A stretch of 64,000 bases of DNA from an uncultured Gammaproteobacteria bacterium (GTDB taxonomy: Bacteria > Patescibacteriota > Microgenomatia > JALYQM01), in the NCBI GenBank assembly GCA_964403585.1, contig CAYOFQ010000001.1, positions 140,456-204,455 of the forward strand, read 5' to 3'. Below are positions 8,234 to 63,539 of this stretch, piece after piece. The notes beneath the pieces are model-generated. The model saw nothing but the letters and a program-made list of their open reading frames with translations. It did not search any database and was not told the origin of the DNA. The position numbers were made by a program, and so were the translations under genes. Position 1 is the stretch's first letter. The number at the start of each line of letters is the position of its first letter.

Positions 8234-8245
8234 AGCATATATACT

Positions 8246-14194: not shown

Positions 14195-14198
14195 AAAG

Positions 14199-38243: not shown

Positions 38244-40889
38244 GTGAAACAGAAATATCTCATACCGCTGCTGGTAACGGCTATCGTTCTGCTCCTTCCA
38301 TTTGTATATAAACTGCCAATTCCGGCGGACGCGATTCCCGGTCTGTATTGGCCCATGAAAGACCATGATTTTGGCTATTCAAACGGCGTACCGGTTAAAA
38401 ACCCGCTCATAACTGACCCGGTTCGGCAGCAATTTGCCTGGAAATATCTCGCCATCAAAGAGTTTAAGCAAGGCAATTGGCCGCTCTGGAATCCCTACAA
38501 TTTCTCGGGAACGCCACTATTGGCAAATTTTCAAACCGGAGCATTCTACCCTCTGAATATCCTCTTCTTTACACCAAATCCGGGATTAGCCGATGATCTT
38601 CATTGGTTTGCTATTCAATGGTCGTGGTATATTTATCTGCAATCTGTGCTATCCGCGCTCTTTCTCTTCCTCTATCTTAAAAAAATTGGCTTGGATAAAC
38701 GTGCTGCCATCTTAGGCGGGATTACCTTTGCTTTTTCCGGATTTAACGTTGGTTGGTGGGAGTGGGGGAATTTAATCCATACGCTCCTCTGGTTCCCGCT
38801 GATTCTCTATGCCATCGAATGTCTGGTCGAAAAGGACCCGGTCGAAGTTCAAGGAACAACCGCGTACCGTAAATCGCTTTGGGGCACATTTCTTACCGTA
38901 GATAAGAACAGACTAATTCTACTTTTTGCTCTTTTTGCCAGTTTCACGGCAGGTCATTTGCAAACCCATCTGCTGGTGCTTATTAACACAATGTTTTATA
39001 TTTTGTATAAGATCCCGCTCATCCAGGTTATTGGAATCAAAATCAAAACAGAGTTCACCCATCGCCGCATGTACTATTGGCTGCAGTTAACACAAGTAGG
39101 GGTATTGTATCTCTTGCTAATCGCAGTACAGGCATTACCGACACTCGACTTTCTGCAGAAAAGTGCCCGCGATGTTGATCTTACCGGATGGCAGCGCAAA
39201 GACTGGTTTTACCCCTTCGAGCATTTTGTCAGCCTGATTGCACCCGACTACTTCGGTAACCCGACAACCTACAATTACTGGGGTGTGTGGAATTATGGCG
39301 AATTTTCGGCATATATCGGAATCTTACCGTTGCTCCTGGCTTTATCGGTAATCATTCAGTTTCTCTTCGATAAATGGCGAAAAGTTGGACATCGAAGTTC
39401 CATCAATCTTACCCATCGTGAGCCCGTCCAGGAAACATTGGATATTATGCAGGAGAATACCGGTATTGGTTTCTTTATGTTCTGTTTGTTTATTAACCTG
39501 GTACTCATAACCCGCAATCCTATTACCGAAAGCTTTTATCGCTACAACATTCCCTTCTTGGCCGGTACACAGCCTTCCCGGGGTATCGCCATTGTTGACT
39601 TTTCATTGGTTGTACTTGCTGCAGTCGGTTGTAATCAGATCATCAAAGTTTTCTCTGATCGGAAAAAGTCACAGGCGGTATTTATCGGCATCAAAACGAA
39701 TATTAACTATGCCTACCTGCTTGCGATTATTGGAATAGGCGTACTTTGGGTTATCACCTTGCTTAAACTGTCGCCGTTACTGGGAGTTCTGGATAAAGCT
39801 CCCGATTTTGACGTTTTCCGCATCTCCAGGAATAATCTTATCCTCCCGACAATACTTATCTTTCTTGCTTTTATTTTGTTGAGGATGTATTTCAAGCGCG
39901 CCGAAAAAGTCTACGCCAGTGATTCTGAAGAACTGACCATTCCACCTTCCACCAAAATAATTCTTTTGGCAATTGTGGCGATTACTTTTTTTGATCTGGC
40001 CCGTTACTGGTATAAATTCGAATCGTTCTCTAAGCCAGAGTTATTATACCCGCAGTCACAGTTGCTGGACAAAGTAAAAGGCGATCCCGCCAAACGCATC
40101 CAAACTGAAGAAAGCCGAATCTTGCCTCCCAACATGAATATACCCTACGAAATTTATACCGTAGATGGCTATGACCCGTTGTATTACGAGAAATACGGGC
40201 AGTTTATTGGACTTTGGGATCGGGATAAAGCCGATCTGACACCATACAAGGCCAATCGGATCATTACCCCGCATCGACCGAAAAGTGTTGTTGCCAATAT
40301 TTCCGGCGCCGCGCACCTGTTGTCTTTTGGCGACTATACCAAATACGAAAAAATAGACGAGTATGGGATGACAAAACTTTTCAAAATGGATACCGTATTG
40401 CCTCATCTCATGATTTTCCCGGCGATGCGCGGATTCGAAACCGAACAGGAATTAGCTCAGTATATGTTCGGTTCGGGATATGATTATTCATCCGAAGCAC
40501 TGTTTATTATGAAACCGACCCGGGAATTTACCATTCCGGATAACGGGGCATACGTTCGACTCGGCAGTCGAAATCACACGGTCGAATTGGTCGAATACAC
40601 TCCCACCAAAATCGCCATCCAAGCTTCGCTAAAGGAAGCCCCGGGACTCTTGTACCTTGCAGATACCTTTGATGAAGGATGGAAGGCCACTATTGATGGG
40701 GTGCCCGCACCAATCATTCGAACTAACTTTGCCTTCCGTGGCTTACAACTTTCACCGGGTGATCACCGTATTCGCATGTGGTATATGCCGGAAAGCTTCT
40801 CTGTAGGTTTAAAAGCAACTCTGGTTGGCACAGGGTTGCTGGTACTGCTCCTCGGATTAAGCTCAAAAAAGTTTCGCAAAATACCGTAA
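38244..40889 (+). CDS. YfhO-family membrane glycosyltransferase (fourth paralog)
   Basis: LWNPYNFSGTPLLANFQTGAFYPLNILFF and C-terminal DTFDEGWKATIDGVPAPIIRTNFAFRGLQLSPGDHRIRMWYMP. Confidence 0.6.
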   Translation: MKQKYLIPLLVTAIVLLLPFVYKLPIPADAIPGLYWPMKDHDFGYSNGVPVKNPLITDPVRQQFAWKYLAIKEFKQGNWPLWNPYNFSGTPLLANFQTGAFYPLNILFFTPNPGLADDLHWFAIQWSWYIYLQSVLSALFLFLYLKKIGLDKRAAILGGITFAFSGFNVGWWEWGNLIHTLLWFPLILYAIECLVEKDPVEVQGTTAYRKSLWGTFLTVDKNRLILLFALFASFTAGHLQTHLLVLINTMFYILYKIPLIQVIGIKIKTEFTHRRMYYWLQLTQVGVLYLLLIAVQALPTLDFLQKSARDVDLTGWQRKDWFYPFEHFVSLIAPDYFGNPTTYNYWGVWNYGEFSAYIGILPLLLALSVIIQFLFDKWRKVGHRSSINLTHREPVQETLDIMQENTGIGFFMFCLFINLVLITRNPITESFYRYNIPFLAGTQPSRGIAIVDFSLVVLAAVGCNQIIKVFSDRKKSQAVFIGIKTNINYAYLLAIIGIGVLWVITLLKLSPLLGVLDKAPDFDVFRISRNNLILPTILIFLAFILLRMYFKRAEKVYASDSEELTIPPSTKIILLAIVAITFFDLARYWYKFESFSKPELLYPQSQLLDKVKGDPAKRIQTEESRILPPNMNIPYEIYTVDGYDPLYYEKYGQFIGLWDRDKADLTPYKANRIITPHRPKSVVANISGAAHLLSFGDYTKYEKIDEYGMTKLFKMDTVLPHLMIFPAMRGFETEQELAQYMFGSGYDYSSEALFIMKPTREFTIPDNGAYVRLGSRNHTVELVEYTPTKIAIQASLKEAPGLLYLADTFDEGWKATIDGVPAPIIRTNFAFRGLQLSPGDHRIRMWYMPESFSVGLKATLVGTGLLVLLLGLSSKKFRKIP

Positions 40890-40898
40890 AGGAATCGT

Positions 40899-41843
40899 AT
40901 GAACAAAAGCATTTCAATTATCATCCCGAATTATAATGGGGCCGAAATTCTACCCCAGAATCTCCCTTTGGTTATCAAAGTGGCTGAAAAGTATCAGGCC
41001 GGAATTATTATCGTCGACGACAAGTCCAAAGATAATTCAGTTGAGATCCTCAAAAGGGATTTTCCTCAGATAAAACTAATTGAAAAAGAAAAAAATGAAG
41101 GATTCTCCTCTACGGTAAACTTGGGAGTCAAAAATGCCCAAACCGAGTTAGTGTGTCTTCTTAATAGCGATGTTATCCTTACCGAAAACTGTCTGGACCC
41201 GCTTTTCGCGCACTTCGACGATCCGTTAACCGCCGGAGTTGCAATGATGGACATCTCGGACAACGAAGATGAACGGTTTGGGAGCCTGCATGGCCGGGGA
41301 AAATTTATTTTTCATAAAGGCTTTTTACTGCATTGGCAGTTGGGGGATAAGACGGAATTAAAGTCGGGGATTACCGGCTGGGTATCCTGTGGCTCCGGCA
41401 TGTTCTCCCGCAAAATTTGGAATGAGCTTGGAGGATTGGATGAATTACTCAACCCCTTTTATTTCGAAGACGTGGACTACGGATATCGCGCCTGGAAATG
41501 CGGATTCAAAATGTACTTTGAAAGCCGGTCGCAAGTACAGCACATCCATAAAAAAGGCGCCATTAAATCCAACTATGATGAAAAACGAATTAAAACAATT
41601 AGTTACCGTAACCAGACTCAATTTACCTGGAAGAATCTGAGCGATGTCGATCTAAAGCTTCGCCATTATCTGAATCTCCCGCTTAACCTGGCCTCTGCTT
41701 ACAAAAATCATGACCAGGCGTTCCTTGACGGATTTCGGCAGGCCTGGGCCCGTCGCAATGAAATAATGCTTAAGCATCAGGAACTGCAATCTAAATGTAA
41801 ACTCACTGACCATCAGGTAATTGGCATGTTCTCTAACACCTAA
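40899..41843 (+). CDS. Glycosyltransferase family 2 (probable polyprenyl-phosphate sugar synthase, CsbB/GtrB-like partner of YfhO)
   Basis: SISIIIPNYNGAEIL...IVDDKSKDNS...DVDYGYR. Sits directly downstream of a YfhO gene, as csbB-yfhO does in Bacillus. Confidence 0.6.
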   Translation: MNKSISIIIPNYNGAEILPQNLPLVIKVAEKYQAGIIIVDDKSKDNSVEILKRDFPQIKLIEKEKNEGFSSTVNLGVKNAQTELVCLLNSDVILTENCLDPLFAHFDDPLTAGVAMMDISDNEDERFGSLHGRGKFIFHKGFLLHWQLGDKTELKSGITGWVSCGSGMFSRKIWNELGGLDELLNPFYFEDVDYGYRAWKCGFKMYFESRSQVQHIHKKGAIKSNYDEKRIKTISYRNQTQFTWKNLSDVDLKLRHYLNLPLNLASAYKNHDQAFLDGFRQAWARRNEIMLKHQELQSKCKLTDHQVIGMFSNT

Positions 41844-41863
41844 CGGTTATATATACTGGAAGA

Positions 41864-42091
41864 ATGCATAGGAATAAACTAAAAGCCCGGTCGGCTTTTG
41901 ATATATTTCTTCTTGTCAGCGCGGGGATCTTAGTAACCGGATTTATTTCCGCTTTAGTTGTTTTTGGTAATAAATCTCTGGGAAATTTATCCAAAAGCAG
42001 CACCAGTTCTGCCGCACCTGTATATAGCTTTGCTGCCGATCCGGGGAATACAGCGTATTCTATGTACATCACCGGTATCAAACCGTTATAA
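41864..42091 (+). CDS. Small single-TM protein (75 aa)
   Basis: One hydrophobic helix (FDIFLLVSAGILVTGFISALVVF) with a Ser-rich tail. Same strand as its neighbours. Confidence 0.3.
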   Translation: MHRNKLKARSAFDIFLLVSAGILVTGFISALVVFGNKSLGNLSKSSTSSAAPVYSFAADPGNTAYSMYITGIKPL

Positions 42092-42118
42092 AAGTTAGGA
42101 TATAGTAAAATAGTACAA

Positions 42119-43645
42119 ATGCGGTCAAAACTTATTTTAGTCAGCATACTGCTTATTGCGGCAATACTCCGTCTTTTCGCGCTCGGCATAACCCCACACG
42201 GTATCTATAGCGATGAAGCTTCTCTGGGATACAACGCCTGGTCCATTCTCACTACGGGGCACGACGAATTTGGCAAAAGCTATCCGCTTACCTTTCAGGC
42301 CTTCGCAGAGTACAAACTTCCCGTATATATTTACACTTCAATTCCATTTATTGCCCTCTTCGGGTTGAGTCCTTTTTCTATCCGTATTGTTAGTGCCATT
42401 GCCGGTATTGTCGCAACATACGGCATATATGTATTATGCCGAACATCTTTTCATAAAAACGAAGGTAAGGAGATCATTTCTCTTTCGGCGGCAGCTTTGT
42501 TCGCAGTTTCTCCCTGGAGCATCCATTTCTCGCGCGGTGGTTTTGAAGCCAACTTGGCATTGTGCTTGATCATCTTTGGCGTATATTTATTTATTTCGTA
42601 TACTGAAACATTTCGTCCGTACCATCTGCTCAGTGCAGTATTGCTTTTTGTGCTGGCTTTATATACATACAATGCTGCACGGGTCTTTTTACCCATCTAT
42701 ATAACGATACTGGTTGTAATGTATAGTCATGAACTATTTAAGTCCAAAGATAAACTATTGCCTCTTATTTCGGGCGGAATAATTCTGTTCACGATTCTTT
42801 ATTCCTTAATGGGATCTATTTTTGGCGCCGAATCGGCTCGCGCGAATCAGGTGCTTGAATTGGAGAACAAACAATATGCGCTTGGTCCGCTGCTCGGTGT
42901 ACTGGAAAAGTATCTCACCCACTTTTCCGCGGAGTTTCTTTTTTTCAGTGGCGACGTGCTGGCCAGGCATTCGGTGCGGGAAGTAGGTGAACTACTATTG
43001 CCGCAATTGCTGTTTATTGCGATTGGCGTATACTCGCTCATCACTAACCCTTCCCGAATCTCAGTCGGGATTCTCCTGTGGCTAATTATTGCACCATTGC
43101 CGGCAGCCATCGCCACACCCGTTCCTCATGCTCTCCGTTCGTTGCTCTTGTTGCCGCCACTTACGATTCTTACCGCCGTTGGACTGACTACAGCGTATAA
43201 TTTGATCAGGCAAAAAAGACTGCCTGCCGCTACGTATACCGCCGGGAGTATCTGTTTTATTTTCTTCGCGTATTCTGTATTCACCTACCTCCACGTATAT
43301 TTTAAACACTATGCGTATAAAAGCTCATGGGACTGGGACGAAGATAAAACTGTACTAGGCCAAACACTTGCCACTGAGTATGCCAAAGCACCGCGCATTT
43401 ATATTGAGACAGCTGAACAGAACCAAATCTATCTGAAATTTTTTACTGCATCACAGGGGCAGGCGTTTATTCGATCACGCTACATATTTTTCTCAAATAT
43501 GGATGAAATTTCACCACAAAACGGCGATATCGTTGCAATTAATGGATGGAAAGGGACTCCTGAACAATTATCCGGAGTGAAAGAGTTGAAAATGCGCAAC
43601 AATTCAATCGGATTTAAGGTCGGGGAATGGAGGAGCGATGAATAA
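42119..43645 (+). CDS. PMT_2 / GT39-GT83-like (ArnT/PMT family) lipid-carrier-dependent glycosyltransferase
   Basis: GIYSDEASLGYNAWSIL (DE motif in the first periplasmic loop), polytopic. Confidence 0.6.
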   Translation: MRSKLILVSILLIAAILRLFALGITPHGIYSDEASLGYNAWSILTTGHDEFGKSYPLTFQAFAEYKLPVYIYTSIPFIALFGLSPFSIRIVSAIAGIVATYGIYVLCRTSFHKNEGKEIISLSAAALFAVSPWSIHFSRGGFEANLALCLIIFGVYLFISYTETFRPYHLLSAVLLFVLALYTYNAARVFLPIYITILVVMYSHELFKSKDKLLPLISGGIILFTILYSLMGSIFGAESARANQVLELENKQYALGPLLGVLEKYLTHFSAEFLFFSGDVLARHSVREVGELLLPQLLFIAIGVYSLITNPSRISVGILLWLIIAPLPAAIATPVPHALRSLLLLPPLTILTAVGLTTAYNLIRQKRLPAATYTAGSICFIFFAYSVFTYLHVYFKHYAYKSSWDWDEDKTVLGQTLATEYAKAPRIYIETAEQNQIYLKFFTASQGQAFIRSRYIFFSNMDEISPQNGDIVAINGWKGTPEQLSGVKELKMRNNSIGFKVGEWRSDE

Positions 43646-44291
43646 CTGGCTACTCCATCTTAAAAATCTCATTTGGTGGCCAATTTCCGAGAAAGATCTG
43701 GTTATTTTATTACTTCTCCTGATCATAGCATTGGTCGAATCGACCTATTCGTTTCAGGATCAACTTGGCGGACCGGAAAAGCCGTATTTGGTAATTCTGG
43801 CAATATATAGTATTTTCCTTAGTGTAGGGATATATAAATTCATTCTAAGCAGCAAACCAATGAGCAGGCTTGAAAAAAAATTTTTTGCACTAACCTACTA
43901 CCTGGCTTTTTCCGGGTTTAATATCATTGCCGTAACTTCTCAGGATATCTCTCAACTGGTTCAGCCACTGCTGGTAACGGTCATCATCAAGCTAACTTTT
44001 TTCTATAATCTTACCCGATCATTAATAACCTTTACCGCAACAGCCATGCTCCAACGTATCGAACAGGAAGGAGTTTTAGGTAAAAGCATCTTGACCGGAT
44101 TAGTGACCGATCACCAGCTTTCCGGCAAGGAATCCTTCTTAATCGCAGTGCTAACGGTGATCATTTATTTCGCTTTCAGAGTAAATAGTTATGGAATTCC
44201 GGCTGCCGCCGTATTGACCTATACCTATACGATCATTGCATGTGGACTTATCGGTAATATCCACAGTATCCTTATGCGGAAAAGTCTATGA
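43638..44291 (+). CDS. Polytopic membrane protein of unknown function
   Basis: 217 aa with about 6 TM helices, translationally coupled to both flanking GT39-like genes. Confidence 0.45.
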   Translation: MNNWLLHLKNLIWWPISEKDLVILLLLLIIALVESTYSFQDQLGGPEKPYLVILAIYSIFLSVGIYKFILSSKPMSRLEKKFFALTYYLAFSGFNIIAVTSQDISQLVQPLLVTVIIKLTFFYNLTRSLITFTATAMLQRIEQEGVLGKSILTGLVTDHQLSGKESFLIAVLTVIIYFAFRVNSYGIPAAAVLTYTYTIIACGLIGNIHSILMRKSL

Positions 44292-45943
44292 AAAATAAAA
44301 TAATTATCGGGGTGCTCATTCTGTTCACTTTTATTCTGCGAACCTACCAGCTGGAGAATAATCCTCCCGGTTTTTATTCTGATGAAGCCAGTTATGCGTA
44401 TAATGCCTACTCGATATTAAAAACCGGACGGGATGAGCATGGTGTATTCCTTCCCATAACTGCCGAGGCGTTCGGGGATTATAAACTTCCGGTCATGTTG
44501 TATTCAATTGTTGCTTCATTTGCCCTATTCTCCCCTTCCGAATGGGCAGCCAGGTTACCCGGAGCATTGTATGGAACCGGCACTATACTTGCCCTGTATT
44601 ATCTGATCAAAGAATTACGCGGATCTAATGACTGGAAGATCCCCTTGCTTGCCGGTGCTTTCCTGGCCATCGCACCTGCTCACATTTTCGTTTCGCGGGG
44701 TACCTGGGAGCTGACACCGGCACTTTTCTTTATAACCATCGGCACACTCACTTTCACTAAAGCTCTGCACTCAACAGGAAAAGCTGCCTTATTCAGCATT
44801 GTTTCTGCCGTATCCTTCATTCTCGCTCTATATTCATATAACTCGGCTCGCGTTTTTGTTCCCTTGTTCGGAATCGGATTGATAATCATCTTTTGGCAAG
44901 AAATACGTGTGTTTATGGAATCGCCCGCGAATAGAATAGTGGTGGCTAGCTTAATTCTTGGAGCAATTCTGCTTTGTTTGCCAATTCTTAAATCCATTGG
45001 TGCGCCGGAAGTAACCCAACGGGCTAAATACATAAGTATCTTTTATGATAAGGGGGTTGATTCACGTCTTTTTGAAGCGATTCGTTCGGATTCCGGTCAG
45101 CCGGTAAAACTAACCCAGATCCTGCACAATAAACCAATCTTTTACTCTATGGATTTCCTGAAAAGATATCTTTCCCATTTTGATTTCAATTTCCTTTTTG
45201 TAATCGGCGACACCTTCGAAATATTCCGGCTGGCCGGACTCGGGCTGTTGCCGCTTATTACCTTGCCACTCGTATTTATTGGCGCAATCAGTCTGTATAA
45301 GCAAAACAAACAATTATTTTTACTATTCACACTCTGGCTGGTGATAAGTCCAATTGCTTCATCTTTCACGGTTTTTACACCGAGTGTTTCTCGGGCACAA
45401 AACATGATCATTCCGCTGGTTGTGTTTGCTGCCTATGGTGCTGCACAAGTATATAGAGAAATTGCCGACCGACTGCCGCAAACAAAGCCTATACTGGTCC
45501 CGATTGTTTTAGTTTTATATGGTCTCAACACCGGCTATATCCTAAACCAATACTTTGTTGAAACTCCCAAACTTACTGCCGAAAAATGGAATGACGGGTT
45601 TAAAGAACAGGTAGCGTTCGCTGCCGGGCATCAGGATCAGTACGATAAAATACTTATTTCCAGCACTCAGGCACCGTCATATATTTTCTATGCCTGGAAT
45701 TTGCGGTACGACCCTGCTACGTTTCAAAACGAAGCCCACGTCGATCATACGCCCGACCAGAATGGGTTGAATTTTACCAGTCAGTTCGGTAAATATCACT
45801 TTACAAAAGATATTACCGGAGATCAAAAAAAGATTCCATTGGAGGAAAAAACACTGGTACTCGGGTTTCCTAACGAGTTAGTTCTACCAAATAAAGATTT
45901 TTATTCGCGTAATCGGCAGAAAGTAGCCGAGGCCAAGGAATAA
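44288..45943 (+). CDS. PMT_2 / GT39-like glycosyltransferase (paralog)
   Basis: GFYSDEASYAYNAYSILKTGRDEHG, polytopic. Confidence 0.6.
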   Translation: MKNKIIIGVLILFTFILRTYQLENNPPGFYSDEASYAYNAYSILKTGRDEHGVFLPITAEAFGDYKLPVMLYSIVASFALFSPSEWAARLPGALYGTGTILALYYLIKELRGSNDWKIPLLAGAFLAIAPAHIFVSRGTWELTPALFFITIGTLTFTKALHSTGKAALFSIVSAVSFILALYSYNSARVFVPLFGIGLIIIFWQEIRVFMESPANRIVVASLILGAILLCLPILKSIGAPEVTQRAKYISIFYDKGVDSRLFEAIRSDSGQPVKLTQILHNKPIFYSMDFLKRYLSHFDFNFLFVIGDTFEIFRLAGLGLLPLITLPLVFIGAISLYKQNKQLFLLFTLWLVISPIASSFTVFTPSVSRAQNMIIPLVVFAAYGAAQVYREIADRLPQTKPILVPIVLVLYGLNTGYILNQYFVETPKLTAEKWNDGFKEQVAFAAGHQDQYDKILISSTQAPSYIFYAWNLRYDPATFQNEAHVDHTPDQNGLNFTSQFGKYHFTKDITGDQKKIPLEEKTLVLGFPNELVLPNKDFYSRNRQKVAEAKE

Positions 45944-52188: not shown

Positions 52189-54087
52189 ATGAAGATCAAA
52201 GTCTATCGCATCATAACAGCAGTAGTATTTCTCCTGTCTATAACCCTAGCACAGGTCGTTACCCCGGCCGGAGCGGCTATAAGTGATTGGCAAAGGGGCG
52301 CGAGTATTGAGTCTTTTGGTGCAGGAGATTTCGGCACCGATAATTTCAAACAATCGGTTACCAATCTGGCAGCCACCGGTGCTAATTACGTCACGCTTAT
52401 CATTCCCTACGTACAATCGTCAACCACATCCACAGATATTCGCAATGCCACCGGCACTCCTTCCGACGATACCTTAAAGAATGCTATTAACTTCGCTCAT
52501 TCTAAAGGGCTAAAAGTAATGCTCAAGCCGCATCTTGAACCGCAAACTGGAGAATGGCGGGCTTATATTAACCCTTCCGATCGAACGAGCTGGTTTACCA
52601 ACTATGGCACCATGCTCAATCATTTGGCGGATATCGCTCAGTCCACAGGTGTCGAAGAGATGTGCCTCGGTGCCGAACTGTACAGCATGTCCGCGTATAC
52701 CCAGAACAGTAGTAATTCCCAAAATTGGCGCAACCTCATTGCCGCAGTCCGAACCAGATATTCCGGACTTCTTACATACAGTGCCAACTTCCAGGGACCT
52801 GCCGAAAAAGATGTCATCGATTTTTGGAATGACCTGGACTTTATTGGAGTGTCAGCTTATTATCCGCTCGATGCCAATAATGCTAATCCTACTGTTGAGT
52901 CGCTTAAAAATAATTGGAGCTCGGTTAACACGAATGAAATACTGCCTTTATATAATCGCTGGAATAAACCAATCCTCTTTACCGAAGTCGGCTATCGCAG
53001 TGTGCACGGCGCCCATATCGAGCCATTCGCCTATTGGCGCAACGATTACGCCGACCAGGACGAACAGGCCCGGGATTATGAAGCCCTGTTCTCATATTGG
53101 AATACCCAGTCTCATCTGAAAGGCATTCATCTGTGGAATTGGGAAAGCAATCCGAACGCCGGTGGGGCGGGGAGCACCAGCTATACGCCTCAAAATAAAA
53201 AAGCCGAAACCATTATGAAGCAGTATTGGGGTGGTGTAGCACCGCAACCTTCGGCATCGGTATCGCCGTCGCCGTCAGTAACTTCAACGCCTGTACCGAC
53301 AACTAATCCCAATACACCTTACTCGATTACAGCGTCGGTAACTCCTTCGACACCAACTAAAAACAATCCTGCTCAGGTAACTGTCAACGTCGTCGGCACC
53401 GGAAGCGATGTCATTATCGATACGGAAATATATAACGCCCAGGGACAAATGGTCTACCAAAAATTCTTCGAGCACCAGAATCTTTCTTCTACCCCTACGA
53501 GTCACCAGTTCAGCTGGACACCCGCTTCGGTCGGAAGTTTTGTCATCAAGGTCGGAGTATTTAATGCCAATTGGAACGGCTTAAGATACTGGCAGGACAA
53601 TGCTCTAACTTTTACAGTTAAGGAGACCGCTTCACCGACACTCGCACCGACTGCCACCCCAACAACCACGCCAAGCCCGAGTCCCACAGTAACTCCCAAA
53701 CCAAGCACCACCCCGGTAGTTACCGCAACACCAACTCCAACGATAACTCCGACACCGAAGCCAAGTACAACGCCTTCAACCCAACCGACTGGCACGATTA
53801 ACGTCTGGTGGCCAACCGACAGTGCGACCATATCCGGAGTACAACCGTTTAAGGCACAACTAAGCAACTACCAGTTAAGCACCTACACCATGTATTGGCA
53901 GGTTGACGGTGGTCAGCTTAATATCATGGCCGACAGTTATCAGGATGCACCACACAAAGAAAGTTTGGTTGATGTTTCCGGCTGGAACTGGAGAGGTACT
54001 GGTCCGTACACCGTCAATTTTATGGCTAAAAATCCACAGGGAAATGTTCTGGCAACAAAGTCCGTAAATGTCTCAATTGTGCGATAG
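52189..54087 (+). CDS. Secreted TIM-barrel glycoside hydrolase (clan GH-A-like) with Pro/Thr-rich linkers and a C-terminal beta-rich domain
   Basis: Signal peptide. LFTEVGY (nucleophile-Glu context), GAELYS, and aromatic-rich catalytic region. Linker TPTTTPSPSPTVTPKPSTTP... Confidence 0.45.
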   Translation: MKIKVYRIITAVVFLLSITLAQVVTPAGAAISDWQRGASIESFGAGDFGTDNFKQSVTNLAATGANYVTLIIPYVQSSTTSTDIRNATGTPSDDTLKNAINFAHSKGLKVMLKPHLEPQTGEWRAYINPSDRTSWFTNYGTMLNHLADIAQSTGVEEMCLGAELYSMSAYTQNSSNSQNWRNLIAAVRTRYSGLLTYSANFQGPAEKDVIDFWNDLDFIGVSAYYPLDANNANPTVESLKNNWSSVNTNEILPLYNRWNKPILFTEVGYRSVHGAHIEPFAYWRNDYADQDEQARDYEALFSYWNTQSHLKGIHLWNWESNPNAGGAGSTSYTPQNKKAETIMKQYWGGVAPQPSASVSPSPSVTSTPVPTTNPNTPYSITASVTPSTPTKNNPAQVTVNVVGTGSDVIIDTEIYNAQGQMVYQKFFEHQNLSSTPTSHQFSWTPASVGSFVIKVGVFNANWNGLRYWQDNALTFTVKETASPTLAPTATPTTTPSPSPTVTPKPSTTPVVTATPTPTITPTPKPSTTPSTQPTGTINVWWPTDSATISGVQPFKAQLSNYQLSTYTMYWQVDGGQLNIMADSYQDAPHKESLVDVSGWNWRGTGPYTVNFMAKNPQGNVLATKSVNVSIVR

Positions 54088-54253: not shown

Positions 54254-56101
54254 TTAACTGGCACCGCCTCCACCGCCGCCTCCACCACCACCGCCGCCGC
54301 CGGAGAAGCCGCCACCAGAACCGGAACTGAACGAAGAGTTCATCGCCGTAGTGAGGGAAGTAAAGCTGTTTGAAATACTGGAAGCAAAGCCGGCATTGAA
54401 ATCACCAACCGAACCCGCAGAATGGTTTCCGGTTGAATAAAACCATGCCGGATGCACCGCCTGCGGATCTGCTCCCAGAATCAGCGGAAGGTATTCTGCC
54501 ACTTTCTTGGCCAACCCAAACGCGGTTCCATAGACTAGAAAGTCCTCCCAAATAATAACAGCCTGGGGAGCAGTTTCTTTGAAATGGGAAAAGTCATTGA
54601 GATAGTTTCTGAAACCGGTCCATTCGGCAGCGTCATGAACGGCTGTCTTATCCCAACGCAAAAAAAGTTTGCCGATAAAGCTAACCGGGATAGAAATAAA
54701 AATCGCGCCGAATACGAGTATATGTATAAATGCTTCCGTGGCAAAAATAAATTGCCAGAAGAAGACCAGCAAGAGAAGCATAATTACGATAGTGGTCGAC
54801 ACAGTGAAAACAGTTCGCATACGTTTGCTGCCTGGTTCAATAAAAGCATTATGGTCGGCGGCTTCTTTAACTGATTTTTTCCAGCTCTCAAAAAATGACT
54901 TAGTTCCGCGCGGATCGTTTTTCATTCGCTCGGTAAGATCATCCATACTAACAGCATCGGCACCGGCAAATACAAAATCCAGCAGGGACTGTTCATAGGT
55001 GTACAGTGTGACTTTAGGCCGGTCATTTAACGGGATCAAATGCAGAGTATAGCGGAAGGCCAGTTGGTCATTAAGATGGAGAAATGACTCTTTGGTGTAC
55101 GGCTCTTCTTGGATCTTAATAAAACCGCGCCGTGCTAAGTCCATAATTGTCGCCGAAAAAACGTTTGTATCGGGATCGGAACCCTGACTCACTAATTGTT
55201 GTACCAGTGCCGGGGTAAGTTTAGCCGGAGGGAACTTAACGTACTCCGGAACATCTTGCACCGCGTATTCTTTACCATGTTTCTTCCATGCAAAAAACCA
55301 CCCGACTCCCCATAACACAAGAAAAATAATCATTCCGGCTATTCCAATGACAAGTAGTCGTGCCTGAAGCACGGTTTTTTCCTGAAAAGCTTTCTCTTCG
55401 GCTTGTACAGTTTCAGTCCGGTTACCGCCTAGGGATACTCCGTTCAAGAGTGAGGAGGGGAATAACTGCCTGATCTCTATAAATGTCTCTGCCGGGACAT
55501 TGGTGACCCTGAAGGATGTGGTTTTTCCGTCAAGTATGGTGGCTTGTCCATTGAGCGGGCCGTGTCCCCACACTTTTATTTGATTCTGATCAACTATCTC
55601 AGGCAAGTGTACAGTAACATTCACCTGATCAGTACGTACGCCCCAGCCGTCCCCGATCATTTGCCAGTAAAACTCACCCACATCGTCATATTTATTGACC
55701 GCTCCTGAAACCGTGTACTTCAAGACAAAGGATTTATTCTCATTGTAGGCATCATAATGACCCTCTATATGCACCGTCGATCCGTTGTCGGTCACAGAAT
55801 AAGTATTAGATGTTGCACTTGAGTCCAGCGTATAGGGGATAAACGAAGAGGAACTTTTTTCACCGAGCGTAATACCAGATAATCGGTACGCTCCTTTCAG
55901 CGGAATATCCCAATATATGTTGTGAAATGTACCGTCAAAATAACCGGTTCGGGTTTCTTCAATCAGTACTGATCGGTCTCGATTAATCTGGGCCTCAATT
56001 GAAACCGACGGAAAGTAATAGCTTTTTGCCATGGCCGGCCGCGGCCACATAACTACTATCCCTAAAAGTACAGCAATAACAGTAAGTTTTTTCATACCCA
56101 T
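54254..56101 (-). CDS. DUF2207-family membrane protein with a poly-Gly C-terminus
   Basis: Signal peptide, ectodomain SYYFPSVSIEAQINRDRSVLIEETRTGYFDGTF, central TM segments, C-terminal SGSGGGFSGGGGGGGGGGGGG. Confidence 0.6.
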   Translation of the reverse strand: MGMKKLTVIAVLLGIVVMWPRPAMAKSYYFPSVSIEAQINRDRSVLIEETRTGYFDGTFHNIYWDIPLKGAYRLSGITLGEKSSSSFIPYTLDSSATSNTYSVTDNGSTVHIEGHYDAYNENKSFVLKYTVSGAVNKYDDVGEFYWQMIGDGWGVRTDQVNVTVHLPEIVDQNQIKVWGHGPLNGQATILDGKTTSFRVTNVPAETFIEIRQLFPSSLLNGVSLGGNRTETVQAEEKAFQEKTVLQARLLVIGIAGMIIFLVLWGVGWFFAWKKHGKEYAVQDVPEYVKFPPAKLTPALVQQLVSQGSDPDTNVFSATIMDLARRGFIKIQEEPYTKESFLHLNDQLAFRYTLHLIPLNDRPKVTLYTYEQSLLDFVFAGADAVSMDDLTERMKNDPRGTKSFFESWKKSVKEAADHNAFIEPGSKRMRTVFTVSTTIVIMLLLLVFFWQFIFATEAFIHILVFGAIFISIPVSFIGKLFLRWDKTAVHDAAEWTGFRNYLNDFSHFKETAPQAVIIWEDFLVYGTAFGLAKKVAEYLPLILGADPQAVHPAWFYSTGNHSAGSVGDFNAGFASSISNSFTSLTTAMNSSFSSGSGGGFSGGGGGGGGGGGGGAS

Positions 56102-56184
56102 AGGATAATCTGTGAGCTGGTTACTTGCAATGAGCAGGAAAAAGTATGACAATAAAGCGGTACAATTTCTCACGAAAGGAATAT

Positions 56185-58364: not shown

Positions 58365-61300
58365 ATGGCATCCTATAAAACTCGAACTAAAAAATCATTT
58401 TTAAAAAGTAATTCCTTCCTGTACATTTCCGGTGTCGTGGCTTCGTTCGCCATCCTGTGTGCAATACTCTCTGCTTTTAACGTTTTTAATGTGCGCAGTA
58501 GTGTCCTCGGGTGGTGGGGTACAAGTCGTGTCGATACTTTGTATTTGCCCCAGGGGAATCGCAATTTCACCGGCGGAAGTGTCATTTCCATGAATTCCAC
58601 CGAGGAACCGGCAATAACGATCGCCGATAGCCCGGACTATAGCAGCAAATCTCCAAGCCCGGCACCGACTAGTGTTACCATCGATGTTTATGAAACCGAC
58701 GCTAACTTTTTACTGAAATATTTAACCCATGATAAAGACTCAAACCAGGTCAATAAGACCTTTGACGTAAGTCAGCTTAATCGGACAGCCAATTTTACTC
58801 ACGATTTAACCAAAGGCTCACGGGTAGTACTCCCTTTGGGCGAAAAAGGAATATTTTTCATCAGAGCGACAGCAGGAAGTATCTTTCATGATGCCATGAT
58901 CGTTCGTTCAAATTTTGGTGTTACGGTGAAAGATGGTAAAAATGAATTCATTTTTTGGGGACAGAACTACAAAACGAAACGAAGTATCTCCTCAGGGACA
59001 GTTAAAATATACAACCTTAAAGAGCAAGTCACGGTAACGTCCAGCGGAACTTTTGACAGTTCGGGAATAGCCAAGGCCGATATTGTGCCTGATGCCGATG
59101 TTGCTTTAGCCGAAGTGGATGGGGAGTACGCTCTCATTCCCATAAACATGCAGTATCTCAACCTCAATTATAATTACATTTCGTATTCCAAGAGTACCAA
59201 TAACACCAAATATTTTGTTTTTACCGATCGTCCGTTATACCGGCCGGGTGATTCGGTTAACTTCAAAGCCATCCTGCGTGAAGATGACGACGCGATCTAT
59301 TCCATCCCCACTGGAACAGCCCGGGTCAGAATCTATCGTGGATACGATGAGAACAATACCATCTACGATAAAAACTTCCCCATTGATAACGGTGCTGTCT
59401 TTGGCGAAATCAAACTTCCCGCCGATGCCCGCACCGGAGATTATCTGATGAAAGTTAGCTTCAATAATCAGGATGATGACTTTTACCAAAACACCACAGC
59501 CTTCCAGATAGAGTACTTCAAGAAGCCTGAATATTTCCTCGATATCGAAGCACCGCAATCTCAACTTATTCAGGGTGATTCGCTCTCGTTCACCGTCAAG
59601 GGCTCCTTTTTCTCAGGACAACCATTGAACAAAGAAAAAATTTCCTATCAGATCAACACCTCCGATTACTGGGATTACAGTTATTACACCGATCAATCAA
59701 TTTTCCTGAACGATGATTACCGCTACGGGTACTTCAGCGGCAAAAAACTCATGAATGAAGAAGTCTTATTGGACGACCGTGGCGAAGCCAAGGTAACACT
59801 CTCAACCAAAGGCAAAAATAATCCCAGTAAGAGTAATATATATTCAATTGAGGCAAGTTTAACCAATAAGTCACTTGCCCCGGCTTTCGCGCGCAAGAAT
59901 GTGCTGGTCTATGCAGGTGAATTTGGGATATATCGTACAGAATATCAGTGGAGTAGTGAAGTAAATAAACCGGTGGCGATGCCATTAATGCTGGCTAAAC
60001 GAATCAGCAATGCCTCGGTCGGCAATAAGACACTCAAAGCAACAGTTAAGCGCGACGCCTGGATTCCGTACCAGGAGCCAAACAAAAAATATCTTTCCTA
60101 TCGTCACGAGACCGAAGATCTTCCTGCTATCCAGGCAACAACATCCCCCGACGGCAAAGCACAACTCAATTTCATTCCAACTAAGCCTGGTTCATATACG
60201 TTTGTCGTAACAACACAGGATAGTAGGGGAAACCAAATCAGCAACACTTTTTATCAGTACATCACCAAGGAAGGTGAACCGACGTATCGTGGCGACTACG
60301 GTTCTTCTGCACCAAAGCTCAGCCTGAGTCAGGACAAGGAACAGTATCGTCCAAGTGATGCGTTACGCTTAACAATCAATTCCGAAGTACCAGATCGGGA
60401 CGTACTACTAACATTCCAGCGTAATTATGTACACAGATATCAGGTGGTGAGAGTCGACGGTAAGTCTAAAGTAGTCGACATCCCGCTCCAGAACGATGAT
60501 CTCCCTAACTTTTATCTTCAGGCAATGAGCTTTGATCAGCATGAATTGGATCGGGACAATATTAATATCAAAATGGATACCATTATTAAAAAGATCAATG
60601 TCAAAGTGACTCCGGAACGGGGAACGTATGGCCCGGGTGATACGGCGACTGTCATGGTTGAAACCACCGACTATACGGGCTCGCCAATTCCTGCCGAAAC
60701 CGCTCTGTGGAGTGTTGATAAAGCCATCTTCGAATTGACTGAAAACAATCTGGGCGACATTCATAGCCAATTCTGGGCGGAACGATATGATGGCACACGA
60801 CTGAATCATTCACTTGAGGGCATCGAAAGTGAGCCGTTTGGTGGGGGCGGGGGCTGCTTCGTTGCGGGAACAAAAATTCTCATGGGTGACGGTTCTACTA
60901 AAAATATCGAAGACGTTAAAGTAGGCGACGTTATTCTTACTAAAGCCGGTCGCGGCGATAGTCAGTTGGTTAAAGCACGGGTTGCCGATGTGCATCAGGC
61001 CCGGGAAAGCGATCTTATTATTTTAAACGGATCGTTACAGTTGACTGGTAATCACATTTTATCGGTCAATAACACCTGGAAACCCGCACAGGAAGTAACT
61101 ATAGGTGATGAGTTGATTCTATCCAACGGAAAAAAACAAACCGTTACCTCCATTGAATACCAGCGCGGCGAACAGGATGTCTATAATCTGGAAATCGAAA
61201 AATACCATACATTCTTTGCTAATAACTTTTGGGTCCATAATCAAAAAGGCGGCGAGCCGTTGGCCCGTGGAGTCTTTAAGGACGTGGCCTATTGGAACCC

Positions 61301-63539
61301 GCGTGTATATACCGACAGCACCGGCCGTGCTAAGGTAAGTTTCAAAATTCCGGATAATCTCACTACCTGGGTCGTTGCCGCAGTCAGTAATACGTCTGAT
61401 ACCAAAGTAGGACAAACAACAGCCGAAATTAAGGTTTCCAAGGATATCGTCATGCGGCCGATCCTGCCCAATGTCTTTAAGGCAGGTGACGAAATAATCG
61501 TTGGTGCGTTCGTTGAAAACTTTACCGACAATCAGCAGACTGTCGATTTGGACCTCGCTTTCGATTCTGGTACAGTGCAACAATCTGCGTTTTCCGCCCA
61601 GGTAATTCCTGCGCATGATCGTAAAGAGTTTACTTGGAAACTCAAACCGGAAAAGGAAAACAAAAAAGCAAAACTGACATTTTCAGCCAAAAATACTCAG
61701 GATAAAAAACTGAGCGACACGATAATTAGTGAAATACCGGTGTACTCATTTGGTTTCATGGAGAAAACGTCCCAGGTCGCCGACGGTGCAACTACCTTTA
61801 ACACCAATCTTGCCCCGGATCTCAACAAAGAGAAATCTGCCTTGACGCTCTCAATCGCACCATCATTACTGCAGACATTACCAACTTCGGCTAAGTATCT
61901 CATTGAATACCCGTATGGATGTGTCGAACAAACAACCAGCAGATTCGCCCCGGCAGTAATAGCGAAATCCAATCCGGAATTGTTTGCTGAAGCGATGCAA
62001 GGCAAAGACGTGAACGACATGATCCAGAAAGGCGTTGCCCGGCTTGAACAATTGCAGCTGCCATCAGGTGGCTGGAGTTGGTGGTTTGACGCCAAACCGG
62101 ATTATTTTGTTACCGGGTATGTCGTTGAATACCTGATGCAAGCTCAGAAATTAGGCATTACAGTCCCACCGGAAATGCTCTCCAGTGCCAAATACTTTTT
62201 AGAGCGTGATGATGTAAGTTATTATGACCCGAACCTCGGAAAATACCAGGATGTTACTCCAACACTGGAAACTACTATCCTTAAGACCTATGCCTTGACG
62301 ATGATTCAGTCACCAAAGGCTAAAAAAGAAATTACTATGTTTGCCGGGCTAACTCCGGATCTGGTTGCCATTGCAACACTGACCAATGCCTTAAATGGGT
62401 ATACTGAACCCAATAAACATGGACTAACGCATCTTATTAGTATGGCCAAACCGCAGGGTGATGCGTTGTATTGGGAAGGAGGAAATGAGGTTCACTTCGG
62501 TTCCAAGAACGCTACTACCGCACTTGCTATCCGTGCCATTCTTACTGCTAAAGGAGATAGTACGACTGCCACTAAAGCGATCAGATATTTAACCCGCAGC
62601 CGTGAATCATACTACTGGTCAAATACCTTTGCGACAGCCCAGGTTCTGCGCACTATTTCGGAATTCTCACAGTACGAAAATGCCGGTAGCCCTAATTATT
62701 CGTATACGGTGCTGGCCGACGGCAAAGAAATAAGTAAAGGCCAGGTAACCCGGGCCAACCAGAAAATCAAAGATATTACTATCCCGTTAACCGGTAATCC
62801 GCCCAAAATAACCGTGCAGAAACAAGGTGAAGGCGCACTCTATTCGACCCTACTTGCCGAACAATACCACACCGACAAAAAGAGTGCTGCCGTACAGCAC
62901 CCTTTACGGGTCACCAGGCAATATTACAATGACACTAACCCCGGCTATTCATTTAAACCGGGTGATGTTGCTATCATCAGCCTTTCAGTCTCAGGATTAA
63001 CTGCCGATGATAACTACGCCGTTATCCAGGATGAACTTCCTTCCGGAATGGTACCGATTAATGAACGCTTTAAGAACGAACAGTCAAGTAACGACTACAG
63101 TGGATATTATTACTATCCGTTTTACAATACCGATCGTGAATATACCGAAAACGGCGTGATACTTACTGCGTACCACGTCTATTCCGGCACTAATACGTAT
63201 TCATACAAAGCCAGAGTCGTGAGTGAAGGGACATTTGCGGTTCCTCCGGCCACTGCTTCGCTTATGTATGCTCCGGAAGTATCAGGTCGCTCCGGTGCCG
63301 AGGTTGTTAAGATTAGCAAAGATGTCCAAAAAGTCAGTGAAACACCCATCTGGCAGGATATTGGTAATCACATAGCTAAAAGTAACCTCTCACCACAAGT
63401 AAAAACCGCGATTGCTTTTGGTGGAAGTATCGCTATTGCCGCGCTGCTTGGTTTAGCAATAAAACTGAACTGGAATACCACCAAAGCAATTTTTAATTCA
63501 ATCAAAAAAAGAATCAAGCCGCAGCCTAAACAGGAGTAA
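58365..63539 (+). CDS. Bacterial alpha-2-macroglobulin family protein with an N-terminal signal-anchor, a C-terminal TM anchor, and a Hint domain inserted at the bait-region position
   Basis: MG-domain motif FVFTDRPLYRPGDSVNFKA. A2M-domain start RGVFKDVAYWNPRVYTD...DNLTTWVVAAVS. Thioester YPYGCVEQ (61920-61931). C-terminal MYAPEVSGRSGAEV. 1724 aa. Confidence 0.8.
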   Translation: MASYKTRTKKSFLKSNSFLYISGVVASFAILCAILSAFNVFNVRSSVLGWWGTSRVDTLYLPQGNRNFTGGSVISMNSTEEPAITIADSPDYSSKSPSPAPTSVTIDVYETDANFLLKYLTHDKDSNQVNKTFDVSQLNRTANFTHDLTKGSRVVLPLGEKGIFFIRATAGSIFHDAMIVRSNFGVTVKDGKNEFIFWGQNYKTKRSISSGTVKIYNLKEQVTVTSSGTFDSSGIAKADIVPDADVALAEVDGEYALIPINMQYLNLNYNYISYSKSTNNTKYFVFTDRPLYRPGDSVNFKAILREDDDAIYSIPTGTARVRIYRGYDENNTIYDKNFPIDNGAVFGEIKLPADARTGDYLMKVSFNNQDDDFYQNTTAFQIEYFKKPEYFLDIEAPQSQLIQGDSLSFTVKGSFFSGQPLNKEKISYQINTSDYWDYSYYTDQSIFLNDDYRYGYFSGKKLMNEEVLLDDRGEAKVTLSTKGKNNPSKSNIYSIEASLTNKSLAPAFARKNVLVYAGEFGIYRTEYQWSSEVNKPVAMPLMLAKRISNASVGNKTLKATVKRDAWIPYQEPNKKYLSYRHETEDLPAIQATTSPDGKAQLNFIPTKPGSYTFVVTTQDSRGNQISNTFYQYITKEGEPTYRGDYGSSAPKLSLSQDKEQYRPSDALRLTINSEVPDRDVLLTFQRNYVHRYQVVRVDGKSKVVDIPLQNDDLPNFYLQAMSFDQHELDRDNINIKMDTIIKKINVKVTPERGTYGPGDTATVMVETTDYTGSPIPAETALWSVDKAIFELTENNLGDIHSQFWAERYDGTRLNHSLEGIESEPFGGGGGCFVAGTKILMGDGSTKNIEDVKVGDVILTKAGRGDSQLVKARVADVHQARESDLIILNGSLQLTGNHILSVNNTWKPAQEVTIGDELILSNGKKQTVTSIEYQRGEQDVYNLEIEKYHTFFANNFWVHNQKGGEPLARGVFKDVAYWNPRVYTDSTGRAKVSFKIPDNLTTWVVAAVSNTSDTKVGQTTAEIKVSKDIVMRPILPNVFKAGDEIIVGAFVENFTDNQQTVDLDLAFDSGTVQQSAFSAQVIPAHDRKEFTWKLKPEKENKKAKLTFSAKNTQDKKLSDTIISEIPVYSFGFMEKTSQVADGATTFNTNLAPDLNKEKSALTLSIAPSLLQTLPTSAKYLIEYPYGCVEQTTSRFAPAVIAKSNPELFAEAMQGKDVNDMIQKGVARLEQLQLPSGGWSWWFDAKPDYFVTGYVVEYLMQAQKLGITVPPEMLSSAKYFLERDDVSYYDPNLGKYQDVTPTLETTILKTYALTMIQSPKAKKEITMFAGLTPDLVAIATLTNALNGYTEPNKHGLTHLISMAKPQGDALYWEGGNEVHFGSKNATTALAIRAILTAKGDSTTATKAIRYLTRSRESYYWSNTFATAQVLRTISEFSQYENAGSPNYSYTVLADGKEISKGQVTRANQKIKDITIPLTGNPPKITVQKQGEGALYSTLLAEQYHTDKKSAAVQHPLRVTRQYYNDTNPGYSFKPGDVAIISLSVSGLTADDNYAVIQDELPSGMVPINERFKNEQSSNDYSGYYYYPFYNTDREYTENGVILTAYHVYSGTNTYSYKARVVSEGTFAVPPATASLMYAPEVSGRSGAEVVKISKDVQKVSETPIWQDIGNHIAKSNLSPQVKTAIAFGGSIAIAALLGLAIKLNWNTTKAIFNSIKKRIKPQPKQE
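60855..61241 (+). other. Hint / mini-intein-like (BIL-type) self-processing domain embedded in the A2M
   Basis: Block A CFVAGTKILMGDG preceded by GGGGG, block B LTGNH, blocks F/G VYNLEIEKYHTFFANNFWVHN. 129 aa with no endonuclease domain. The +1 residue is Gln, not Cys/Ser/Thr. Confidence 0.7.

Follow-up and report, generated by a model that had tools for sequence, protein, structure and literature searches.

The window analysed here (the whole stretch of 64,000 nucleotides, from contig CAYOFQ010000001.1) carries on its forward strand a gene for an alpha-2-macroglobulin (A2M) in which a Hint domain of the bacterial intein-like (BIL) kind is inserted into the bait loop, toward the C-terminal side of that loop. 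The A2M family, complement included, is the textbook thioester trap armed by an external protease that cuts the bait, and the BIL/Hint domains are the standard example of self-cleavage through a thioester that the protein itself makes. In this protein the two are fused at the trigger point, and the fusion is under strong purifying selection in well over 100 divergent proteins, mostly from the candidate phyla radiation (CPR). The Hint is considered, with good confidence, as an active BIL that excises itself from the bait loop.

The open reading frame (ORF) was confirmed as encoding a thioester-type bacterial A2M, with the thioester itself predicted from a CxEQ motif. Public assemblies contain a protein identical to the ORF product (P0001), encoded on a 1.57-Mb NCBI contig and on an 88-kb Logan contig. 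Its features are as follows (window coordinates, strand, description and basis; pLDDT, predicted local distance difference test; MG, macroglobulin).

58365..63539, +: whole A2M gene, 1724 aa, with embedded Hint and a predicted anchor at each end (ORF and translation, Pfam, Foldseek)
58413..58487, +: N-terminal hydrophobic segment (residues ~17-41), putative signal anchor (hydropathy)
59208..59507, +: MG2 domain (residues 282-381), containing TDRPLYRPGDSV (Pfam PF01835, E 2e-13)
60318..60737, +: A2M bait-region domain, A2M_BRD (residues 652-791; Pfam PF07703, E 4e-15)
60786..60854, +: upstream tether of the bait loop (residues 808-830), ending in G826-G830 (pLDDT <50 at 808-828; glycine conservation)
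60855..61241, +: Hint domain, predicted type A BIL / PT-HINT (C831-N959), 129 aa (Pfam, NCBIfam, AlphaFold2, Foldseek, conservation)
61242..61268, +: downstream tether of the bait loop (Q960-K961-G962 ... R968) (conservation; pLDDT <50 at 961-975)
61287..61553, +: A2M (MG) domain (residues 975-1063), beginning just past R..FKDVAYWNP (Pfam PF00207, E 4e-19)
61866..62675, +: thioester domain, TED (residues ~1168-1437) (Pfam TED_complement at 1168-1280; helical bundle, model residues 568-837)
61920..61931, +: thioester motif C1186-V-E-Q1189 (translation; conservation)
62904..63278, +: C-terminal bacterial MG10 domain, bMG10 (residues 1514-1638), including MYAPE (Pfam PF17973, E 3e-21)
63405..63461, +: C-terminal hydrophobic segment (residues 1681-1699) and basic tail, putative second anchor (hydropathy)

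Pfam profiles matched in the order MG2, A2M_BRD, Hint, A2M, TED_complement and bMG10, all above their cut-offs. An initial annotation, made from the sequence of the window, had quoted as A2M hallmarks the TDRPLYRPGDSV motif in MG2, the A2M domain, a CVEQ thioester motif at residue 1186 and a C-terminal MYAPE..GRS motif; all were found at these places (CVEQ at 1186-1189), and the hidden Markov model searches bear out the MG, A2M and thiol-ester assignments (MG2, A2M_BRD, A2M, TED and bMG10). The thioester Cys1186 lies 227 residues past N959, the last residue of the Hint.

Residues 831-959 had been described in the same annotation as a complete mini-Hint that resembles BIL domains, and both descriptions hold. 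Hom_end_hint (831-866, E 1e-10) and PT-HINT (845-959, E 3e-9) matched above the curated Pfam cut-offs, as did NCBIfam intein_Cterm (938-959) above its own; the matches to Intein_splicing, Hint (Hedgehog), Hint_2 and Vint were all below cut-off. The catalytic set is intact, with C831 following G826-G830, TGNH at 894-897, VYNL at 939-942, H958-N959 and Q960 at position +1, in a domain of mini size (129 residues) without a homing endonuclease. When a profile of the family was compared with solved structures, the best matches of the insert (~2e-15) were BIL2 of Tetrahymena thermophila BUBL1 (6tmm, 6y75) and a C. thermocellum BIL (2lwy), followed by a Streptomyces umbrella-toxin protein (8w20), and true inteins appeared from ~1e-7. 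A second AlphaFold2 model, restricted to residues 809-975 (core pLDDT >90), gave the same picture in Foldseek: BIL2 was matched with a TM score of 0.81 (root-mean-square deviation ~2.2 A) and 2lwy with 0.84 (1.9 A); the DnaB, gp41-1 and RecA inteins ranked lower, as did Hedgehog (6tyy, 1at0).

Type A BILs have Cys1, a terminal His-Asn and no nucleophile at +1, and they mainly cleave, with some splicing (PMC4031507, PMC7664689); the terminal His-Asn separates them from type B, and in their splicing the freed amino group attacks the thioester (PMC4031507). Cys1, T-x-x-H, His-Asn and a non-nucleophile at +1 are all present in the A2M Hint. By sequence and fold, the insert is assigned to the type A BIL/PT-HINT domains and not to the canonical inteins, and cleavage activity is predicted for it. 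A canonical class 1 intein was rejected on the +1 residue (not Cys, Ser or Thr), on the insertion site in a variable loop, and on the profile and fold ranking. A Hedgehog (Hog) domain was also rejected: the insert has a terminal His-Asn that is followed directly by the A2M domain, and it scores 18.1 bits with the Pfam Hint model, whose cut-off is 29.7.

The position of the Hint was examined by structure prediction and by alignment with A2Ms of known structure. An AlphaFold2 model of residues 601-1660 (mean pLDDT 81.7) matched native E. coli A2M (ECAM, YfhM; 5a42) and native Salmonella A2M (4u48) with a Foldseek probability of 1.00 and a TMq of 0.47-0.48, and matched protease-activated ECAM forms less well (TMq 0.32-0.39). 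In the model the bait loop is predicted as a disordered stretch at its expected place in the bait-region domain (BRD), interrupted by a folded Hint (pLDDT about 80-93, against <50 in the flanks 808-828 and 961-975). The alignment with human A2M starts at precursor residue ~722-724, directly past N959, and so at the C-terminal end of the human bait region as annotated in UniProt, 690-728. The family profile aligned with ECAM at E 1e-48, running to W804 and restarting ~40 residues past the Hint; after correction of the ECAM chain numbering by the CLEQ cysteine (SEQRES 1165 = native 1187), the unaligned ECAM stretch corresponds to native 920-996, which encloses the published disordered bait, Arg923-Leu942 (PMC4498604). 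Because a disordered loop persists on both sides of the Hint, and because of the ECAM and human A2M alignments, the Hint is considered as inserted in the bait and not as replacing it. The initial annotation was right in placing it at the bait position, but imprecise in stating that it replaces the bait region. In cleaved ECAM, Arg956 contacts the C-terminal MG domain (PMC4498604); the invariant Arg968 of the window protein lies 35 residues past W804 once the Hint is removed, and Arg956 lies 37 past the equivalent Phe, which suggests, on position only, that the two correspond.

Homologues were collected in several sets. In an exhaustive comparison, residues 640-1300 matched 2834 proteins at E <=1e-30 out of 1.84 billion cluster representatives; a close set comprised the 120 best homologues (42-58% identity), and a set of 137 long proteins (>=1450 aa) consisted mostly of 50%-identity representatives from the best 150 matches, with ten added from a first search. 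A scan of species-representative genomes with a single-protein query yielded 12 loci. Handles beginning with L denote loci, and those beginning with P denote proteins. Relatives with and without the insert, which the initial annotation had proposed to look for, were both found: the Hint is present in 118 of the 137 long proteins and absent from 19. In the close set it stands at the same site in 119 of 120, and since the same domain recurs at the same place, the observation is far beyond chance. Named close homologues belong to Gottesman-, Davies-, Woyke-, Roizman- and Blackburnbacteria, and in the genome scan the Hint form turned up on contigs bearing the labels Microgenomates, Moraniibacteriota, Paceibacterota and Woesebacteria. 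The Hint form is the prevailing A2M type among the closest relatives, the named ones being mostly CPR/Patescibacteria. A few contigs or proteins carry other labels (Pseudomonadales, Bdellovibrionales, Limnocylindrales, Nevskiaceae; L010, L004, P0082 and P0085 among them); these labels were taken as binning or annotation errors, because L010 ('Pseudomonadales') differs from L009 (Woesebacteria) by two residues over the ~260 aa compared.

Among the 118 Hint-bearing representatives, Gly-1, Cys1, the block B His, the penultimate His and the terminal Asn are each invariant, the block B Thr is found in 116 (Ser in 2) and the block F Asn in 117. The +1 residue varies (Q49, D31, E16, G12, K3, S3, N2, L1, A1). 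Gln at +1 had been read as a non-nucleophile that excludes canonical splicing, and the family is consistent with this: Cys, Ser or Thr occupies the position in 0/119 close homologues, where it is Q, E, D or G, and in 3/118 representatives, all Ser. The close homologues also share Gly at -1 (120/120) and at -2 (118/120), Lys at +2 (119/119), Arg968 (120/120) and the thioester motif G-C-x-E-Q (120/120). Mean pairwise identity is 44% in the Hint and 33% in the rest of the protein. Only two cysteines, the Hint Cys1 and the thioester Cys, are found per ~1700-residue protein in 92/120 close homologues. At least seven representatives without CxEQ (P0244, which is MBP7875549.1 from Woesebacteria, P0248, P0252, P0253, P0255, P0259 and P0265; 33-36% identical to the query region) keep an intact Hint with GG|C, HN and Lys+2, and in 6/7 the Hint Cys is the sole cysteine of the protein. 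In sequence terms, the conservation and the cysteine pattern are the signature expected of a catalytically used Hint.

The N-terminal hydrophobic segment (best 19-residue hydropathy window starting at residue 17, score 2.25) has a counterpart in 101/117 Hint-bearing and 17/19 Hint-less relatives, and the C-terminal one (2.12 at residue 1681, followed by the basic tail KLNWNTTKAIFNSIKKRIKPQPKQE) in 101/117 and 18/19. No lipobox is evident at the N-terminus of the A2M protein. From hydropathy we infer that both segments are transmembrane anchors of a surface-exposed protein. In one member of the family, P0254 (2280 aa), the Hint lies at residue 1445, after an extra N-terminal extension of ~600 residues.

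In P0119 and the 18 other Hint-less representatives the Hint is precisely absent and its flanks are kept, as is the thioester motif GC[A-Z]EQ (19/19). These proteins have only a Gly-rich linker of 10-16 residues at the site. The clearest pair comes from Moraniibacteriota: L013 has the Hint (...MAEGGG[C...HN]GKDGGMRTLF...), L003 lacks it (...MAEMGGGGNEDLRTLF...), and the two are 67% and 72% identical on the two sides of the insertion site, closer than the window A2M is to its nearest relative (58%). In a neighbour-joining tree of the 137 proteins, 17 Fitch changes were counted for the 19 Hint-less tips, against 18.2 after shuffling, with a Hint-bearing root state. The tree is near a star and poorly resolved, and therefore shows only that the Hint-less proteins are not one obvious clade; we conclude only that loss of the Hint, or less likely its gain, occurred more than once. 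Divergence of the Hint and of its host is modestly correlated (r = 0.33).

Recent horizontal insertion was considered and dropped, as there is no compositional signal (G + C content at third codon positions, 0.419 in the Hint against 0.466 +/- 0.037 in equal-sized windows of the gene). An 8-nt direct repeat, GAGCCGTT, brackets the Hint in frame (60831-60838 and 61254-61261, 423 nt apart, encoding E-P-F and E-P-L). It was not counted as a target-site duplication: another, unrelated 8-mer pair occurs in the same 561 nt, where ~2 are expected by chance. The EPL tripeptide past the Hint is found only in this protein among the 120 homologues. As a separate observation, the bait of Hint-less members (P0210, P0216, P0221, P0223, P0228, P0242 and others; L003) is a linker of very few residues, nearly all of them glycine (AEKGGGGG(D)xR). 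For a broad-spectrum trap such a bait is unusual, and one may ask whether it is meant for glycyl-glycine endopeptidases.

The residues around the insertion site separate the A2M Hints from other BILs. A Lys stands near the C-terminal junction in all 118 Hint-bearing representatives (+2 in 113 of them, +1 in three, +5 in two), and no Lys is found between the Gly run and the conserved Arg in any of the 19 Hint-less relatives. In a control set of 50 C. thermocellum-type BIL/PT-HINT proteins, S, K, L or T (no Gly) stands at -1, Ala at +1, and Lys at +2 in 1/50. Because the controls differ at -1, +1 and +2, the GG|C ... HN|x-K-G junctions are considered as specific to the A2M Hints. The poly-Gly run, on the other hand, is a feature of the host and not an adaptation to the Hint, since Hint-less relatives read ...AEKGGGGG(D/G)xR... 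at this place. The A2M Hint shares sequence features with the BUBL-type BIL: G829-G830 precede C831 and K961 lies on the C-terminal side, as Gly-Gly directly precedes Cys1 in BIL2; its N-extein is the MG/BRD region of an A2M and not ubiquitin-like as in the BUBL-type BIL. BIL2 forms an isopeptide between a Lys epsilon-amine and a C-terminus, according to section 2.4 of PMC8616854 (citing Chiarini et al. 2021). From the same work the section relates a coupling of the GG-ended N-flank of BIL2 to other proteins, namely ubl5 and Ras, which takes place without ATP.

The following mechanism is favoured. The A2M would be exported, tethered by its N- and C-terminal hydrophobic helices, and would fold in a native-like state. 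The Hint would turn the Gly830-Cys831 peptide bond into a thioester by an N-S acyl shift, and cyclisation of Asn959 would cut the Asn959-Gln960 bond, so that the Hint leaves the loop. There is no side-chain nucleophile at +1, and the Gly830 acyl group must therefore pass to an amine or to water. The favoured acceptor, in cis, is the side-chain epsilon-amine of Lys961, with which the acyl group would form an isopeptide like the one reported for BIL2; alternatively, the new alpha-amine of residue 960, perhaps assisted by Lys961, would serve, as proposed for type A BILs. The halves would stay covalently joined, and the mature trap would have a short Gly/Lys/Arg bait equivalent to that of the Hint-less orthologues. 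Capture by an amine in cis is favoured because the Lys is strictly linked to the Hint, because BIL2, the nearest solved relative, performs Lys-isopeptide chemistry, because ligation by type A BILs is on record even when no nucleophilic side chain is available, and because the interchangeable Hint-less orthologues suggest a functionally equivalent processed product. The whole chain, from excision of the BIL to re-ligation of the halves through an amine, is given an even chance, and re-ligation as the main outcome an even chance or slightly less.

Several points weigh against this mechanism. Excision of the Hint, its rate and its products are all inferred. For BIL domains cleavage products dominate (PMC7664689, PMC4031507), which favours a nicked, two-chain outcome. 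The invariant Lys could instead act in catalysis of Asn cyclisation or reduce the pKa of the newly formed N-terminus, or its role could be an unrelated one. Junction geometry in the AlphaFold2 models is unreliable, as the flanks have low pLDDT. Finally, a difference in function between A2Ms with and without the Hint would also fit the presence/absence polymorphism.

The initial annotation had envisaged a self-triggered or constitutively nicked trap; this is not supported as stated, and is kept as one of several possible outcomes. Here the Hint would cut at one end or at both, the Gly830 thioester would be hydrolysed and the halves not re-joined; the two chains of the A2M would stay associated through the MG domain that they share and through both anchors. 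The result could be a harmless chain maturation of the C3/C4 kind or, because bait cleavage is the activating event in ECAM (PMC4498604), a self-triggered trap whose thioester is exposed without a protease as a timed or constitutive covalent 'harpoon'. This outcome, the main rival of re-ligation, is possible but tentative. BILs without a +1 nucleophile give mostly cleaved products (PMC7664689, PMC4031507), the residues required for N- and C-terminal cleavage are all invariant, and each half owns a hydrophobic anchor, although the two anchors are not specific to Hint-bearing proteins. When the ECAM bait tail, Arg956 included, is untethered, the thioester domain is dislodged from the MG domain at the C-terminus (PMC4498604), and the invariant Arg968 is spaced from W804 much as Arg956 is from its Phe (35 against 37 residues). 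A nicked trap nevertheless sits uneasily with the Hint-linked Lys, whose restriction to Hint-bearing members it leaves unexplained, and with the Lys-isopeptide ligation of BIL2. Self-firing is made less parsimonious by Hint-less orthologues that are 67-72% identical and keep thioester and anchors, and a constitutively fired thioester would be lost to water, yet CxEQ is retained in all 120 close homologues. An improbable further reading would have the Gly830 thioester act as a second warhead, attacked by a foreign amine (a protease Lys, a cell-wall or S-layer component, or a host-cell surface), so that the anchored N-terminal half is coupled to the target. The conjugation of GG-ended N-flanks to ubl5 and Ras without ATP reported for BIL2 (PMC8616854), the GG|CF junction shared with BIL2 and Hedgehog, and the CxEQ-less members, whose retained Hint must have a value independent of the classical warhead, argue for such conjugation; its acceptor is purely hypothetical, the invariant cis Lys beside the active site would normally outcompete outside amines, and the poly-Gly run, being also present in Hint-less relatives, belongs to the host.

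It is very unlikely that the Hint is catalytically silent, as a structural plug or a folded protease-sensitive bait comparable to the complement anaphylatoxin. Complement sets a precedent for a folded domain where the bait lies, structures of C5 and C3 were among the Foldseek matches of the model, and the Hint is predicted to be well folded on flexible tethers. A structural role would not, however, hold Cys1, the His and the His-Asn fixed across proteins ~33% identical elsewhere, nor is it suggested by a Cys1 that is often the sole or one of two cysteines in ~1700 residues. Least credible of all is that the Hint is a common selfish mini-intein of class 1, spliced out by the canonical four steps and irrelevant to A2M function. 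Blocks A, B, F and G are present, intein_Cterm is above cut-off, Hint-less and Hint-bearing tips are interspersed (17 against 18.2 changes) with L013/L003 as a clean presence/absence pair, and conservation of the catalytic residues is expected of any intein trapped in a useful host protein. Against this stand the lack of Cys, Ser or Thr at +1 (here, in 115/118 representatives and in all 119 close homologues) and of a homing endonuclease, an insertion site that is the least conserved loop of the host rather than a conserved active site and is fixed in 119/120, an Intein_splicing match below and a PT-HINT match above cut-off, the BILs as nearest relatives by profile and fold, and a host-like composition with no sign of recent transfer.

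A broader proposal, possible but tentative, is that the Hint makes the bait loop the seat of a second, self-generated thioester chemistry. This may take the form of 'isopeptide splicing', in which the Lys961 side chain captures the Gly830 thioester and leaves a branched bait, or it may involve transfer of the acyl group to amines of other molecules, or a trap that fires by itself. If true, the latter version would amount to a two-warhead or protease-independent covalent trap or adhesin on host-dependent CPR bacteria.

Comparison with known systems places the protein between several of them. With the type A BIL 2lwy the A2M Hint shares the mini Hint fold, Cys1, T-x-x-H, His-Asn, the lack of a +1 nucleophile and of an endonuclease, a location in a variable region of an exported protein, and a PT-HINT (PF07591) match above cut-off. 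It differs in its host, an A2M instead of a toxin or adhesin, in its GG|C and HN|x-K-G flanks, and in its occurrence at one site in well over 100 50%-identity clusters, their named members being mostly CPR bacteria, whereas BILs are scattered among polymorphic proteins. BIL2 (6y75, 6tmm) is the best structural match and joint best by profile, with Gly-Gly before Cys1-Phe2 and a His-Asn end; its reported transfer of a Gly carboxyl to a Lys epsilon-amine (described in PMC8616854) is the chemistry that Lys961 suggests here. Unlike the A2M Hint it is eukaryotic and cytoplasmic with ubiquitin-like flanks, identity is only ~24%, and the isopeptide of the A2M is a prediction. The Hedgehog autoprocessing domain also has the Hint fold, a G|C-F tripeptide at the cut and an N-S acyl shift followed by attack of a nucleophile from outside the protein backbone, but it lacks the terminal His-Asn and C-terminal cleavage and has a sterol-recognition region.

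On the host side, ECAM and Salmonella A2M share the MG array, the BRD, the A2M domain, a CUB-TED with CxEQ and a C-terminal MG10 with the MY motif, and the thioester Cys of ECAM has an almost equal residue number. ECAM differs by its disordered bait of ~20 residues without a Hint, by being a lipoprotein of a diderm periplasm, where the window A2M has a predicted transmembrane helix at each end, and by a gene that adjoins pbpC (PBP1C), which the window gene does not. Complement C3, C4 and C5 belong to the same superfamily (Foldseek matches). In these proteins the anaphylatoxin domain and the chain-processing site occupy the position equivalent to the A2M bait, and removal of the anaphylatoxin triggers exposure of the thioester. 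Their processing differs in being carried out by external proteases (furin, convertases), and the anaphylatoxin fold is unrelated to Hint.

No Hint or intein in the bait region of an A2M was found in the full-text literature searched, including a 2026 A2M review, in a coverage that leaves out most subscription journals; this agrees with the initial annotation, which was aware of no described A2M with a Hint at the bait site. Automatic pipelines already tag these proteins with both A2M and Hint Pfam domains. A2Ms and BIL domains are each well known, and the new part is their combination at the bait, which would surprise specialists of A2M and complement as well as those of inteins. If the Hint only matures the bait, a protein-splicing-type step would take place inside an extracellular defence protein, possibly as a second natural case of Lys-isopeptide splicing; if it fires or pre-nicks the trap, a thioester protein would be activated independently of proteases. 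The Hint may also serve as a ligation tool, being small and cysteine-poor, from an extracellular context, and having Gly-Gly / x-Lys-Gly junctions.

In the window, genes for a VIT1 transporter and a fatty-acid desaturase lie upstream of the A2M gene and a divergent TetR gene lies downstream; the closest relative has the same neighbourhood minus the desaturase. Most other relatives examined carry, just downstream of the A2M gene and on the same strand, a gene for a membrane-anchored Memo-like protein (PF01875) of ~300 aa with an N-terminal hydrophobic segment, whose start overlaps the A2M stop or lies within about 120 nt of it, and a PGA_cap (CapA-like) gene is often next. The Memo-like genes were located at:

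L014, 12244-13152
L015, 12066-12938
L005, 8210-9115
L006, 8299-9201
L007, 8207-9121
L008, 8174-9073
L010, 8238-9143
L003, 8160-9086

The A2M-Memo-PGA_cap arrangement looks like a conserved cassette. Memo and PGA_cap were also considered as operon partners that could explain the Hint, and rejected: they are not Hint-specific, because they also follow the Hint-less L003 gene and because tblastn detected no homologue of either in the window. The distant Hint-less A2M of Stahlbacteria (L012) has a long ordinary bait and is the only one among the relatives examined with a penicillin-binding protein (PBP) transpeptidase gene downstream (8136-9044; cf. E. coli yfhM-pbpC). In L014, a serpin gene (13239-14480) lies two genes downstream of the Hint-bearing A2M, so that two unrelated protease-inhibitor families stand side by side.

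Elsewhere in the 64-kb window, no tRNA gene and no Rfam family was found at the gathering threshold. A run at 38244-45943 (+) encodes three large membrane proteins of the multi-pass kind, of 881, 508 and 551 aa, that look like YfhO/PMT-type glycosyltransferases; a Pfam YfhO match was obtained for the first of them (881 aa) only, and PMT_2 was matched in the homologous genes of the closest relative, L016. A 314-aa ORF in this run may, as a guess from its sequence, have a role like that of glycosyltransferase family 2. The gene at 52189-54087 (+) encodes a glycoside hydrolase of family GH113 followed by long Pro/Thr/Ser-rich linkers, and its C-terminal extension of ~250 aa has no Pfam match. At 54254-56173 (-), a DUF2207 membrane protein ends at its C-terminus in 13 consecutive glycines (…SGGGGGGGGGGGGGAS).

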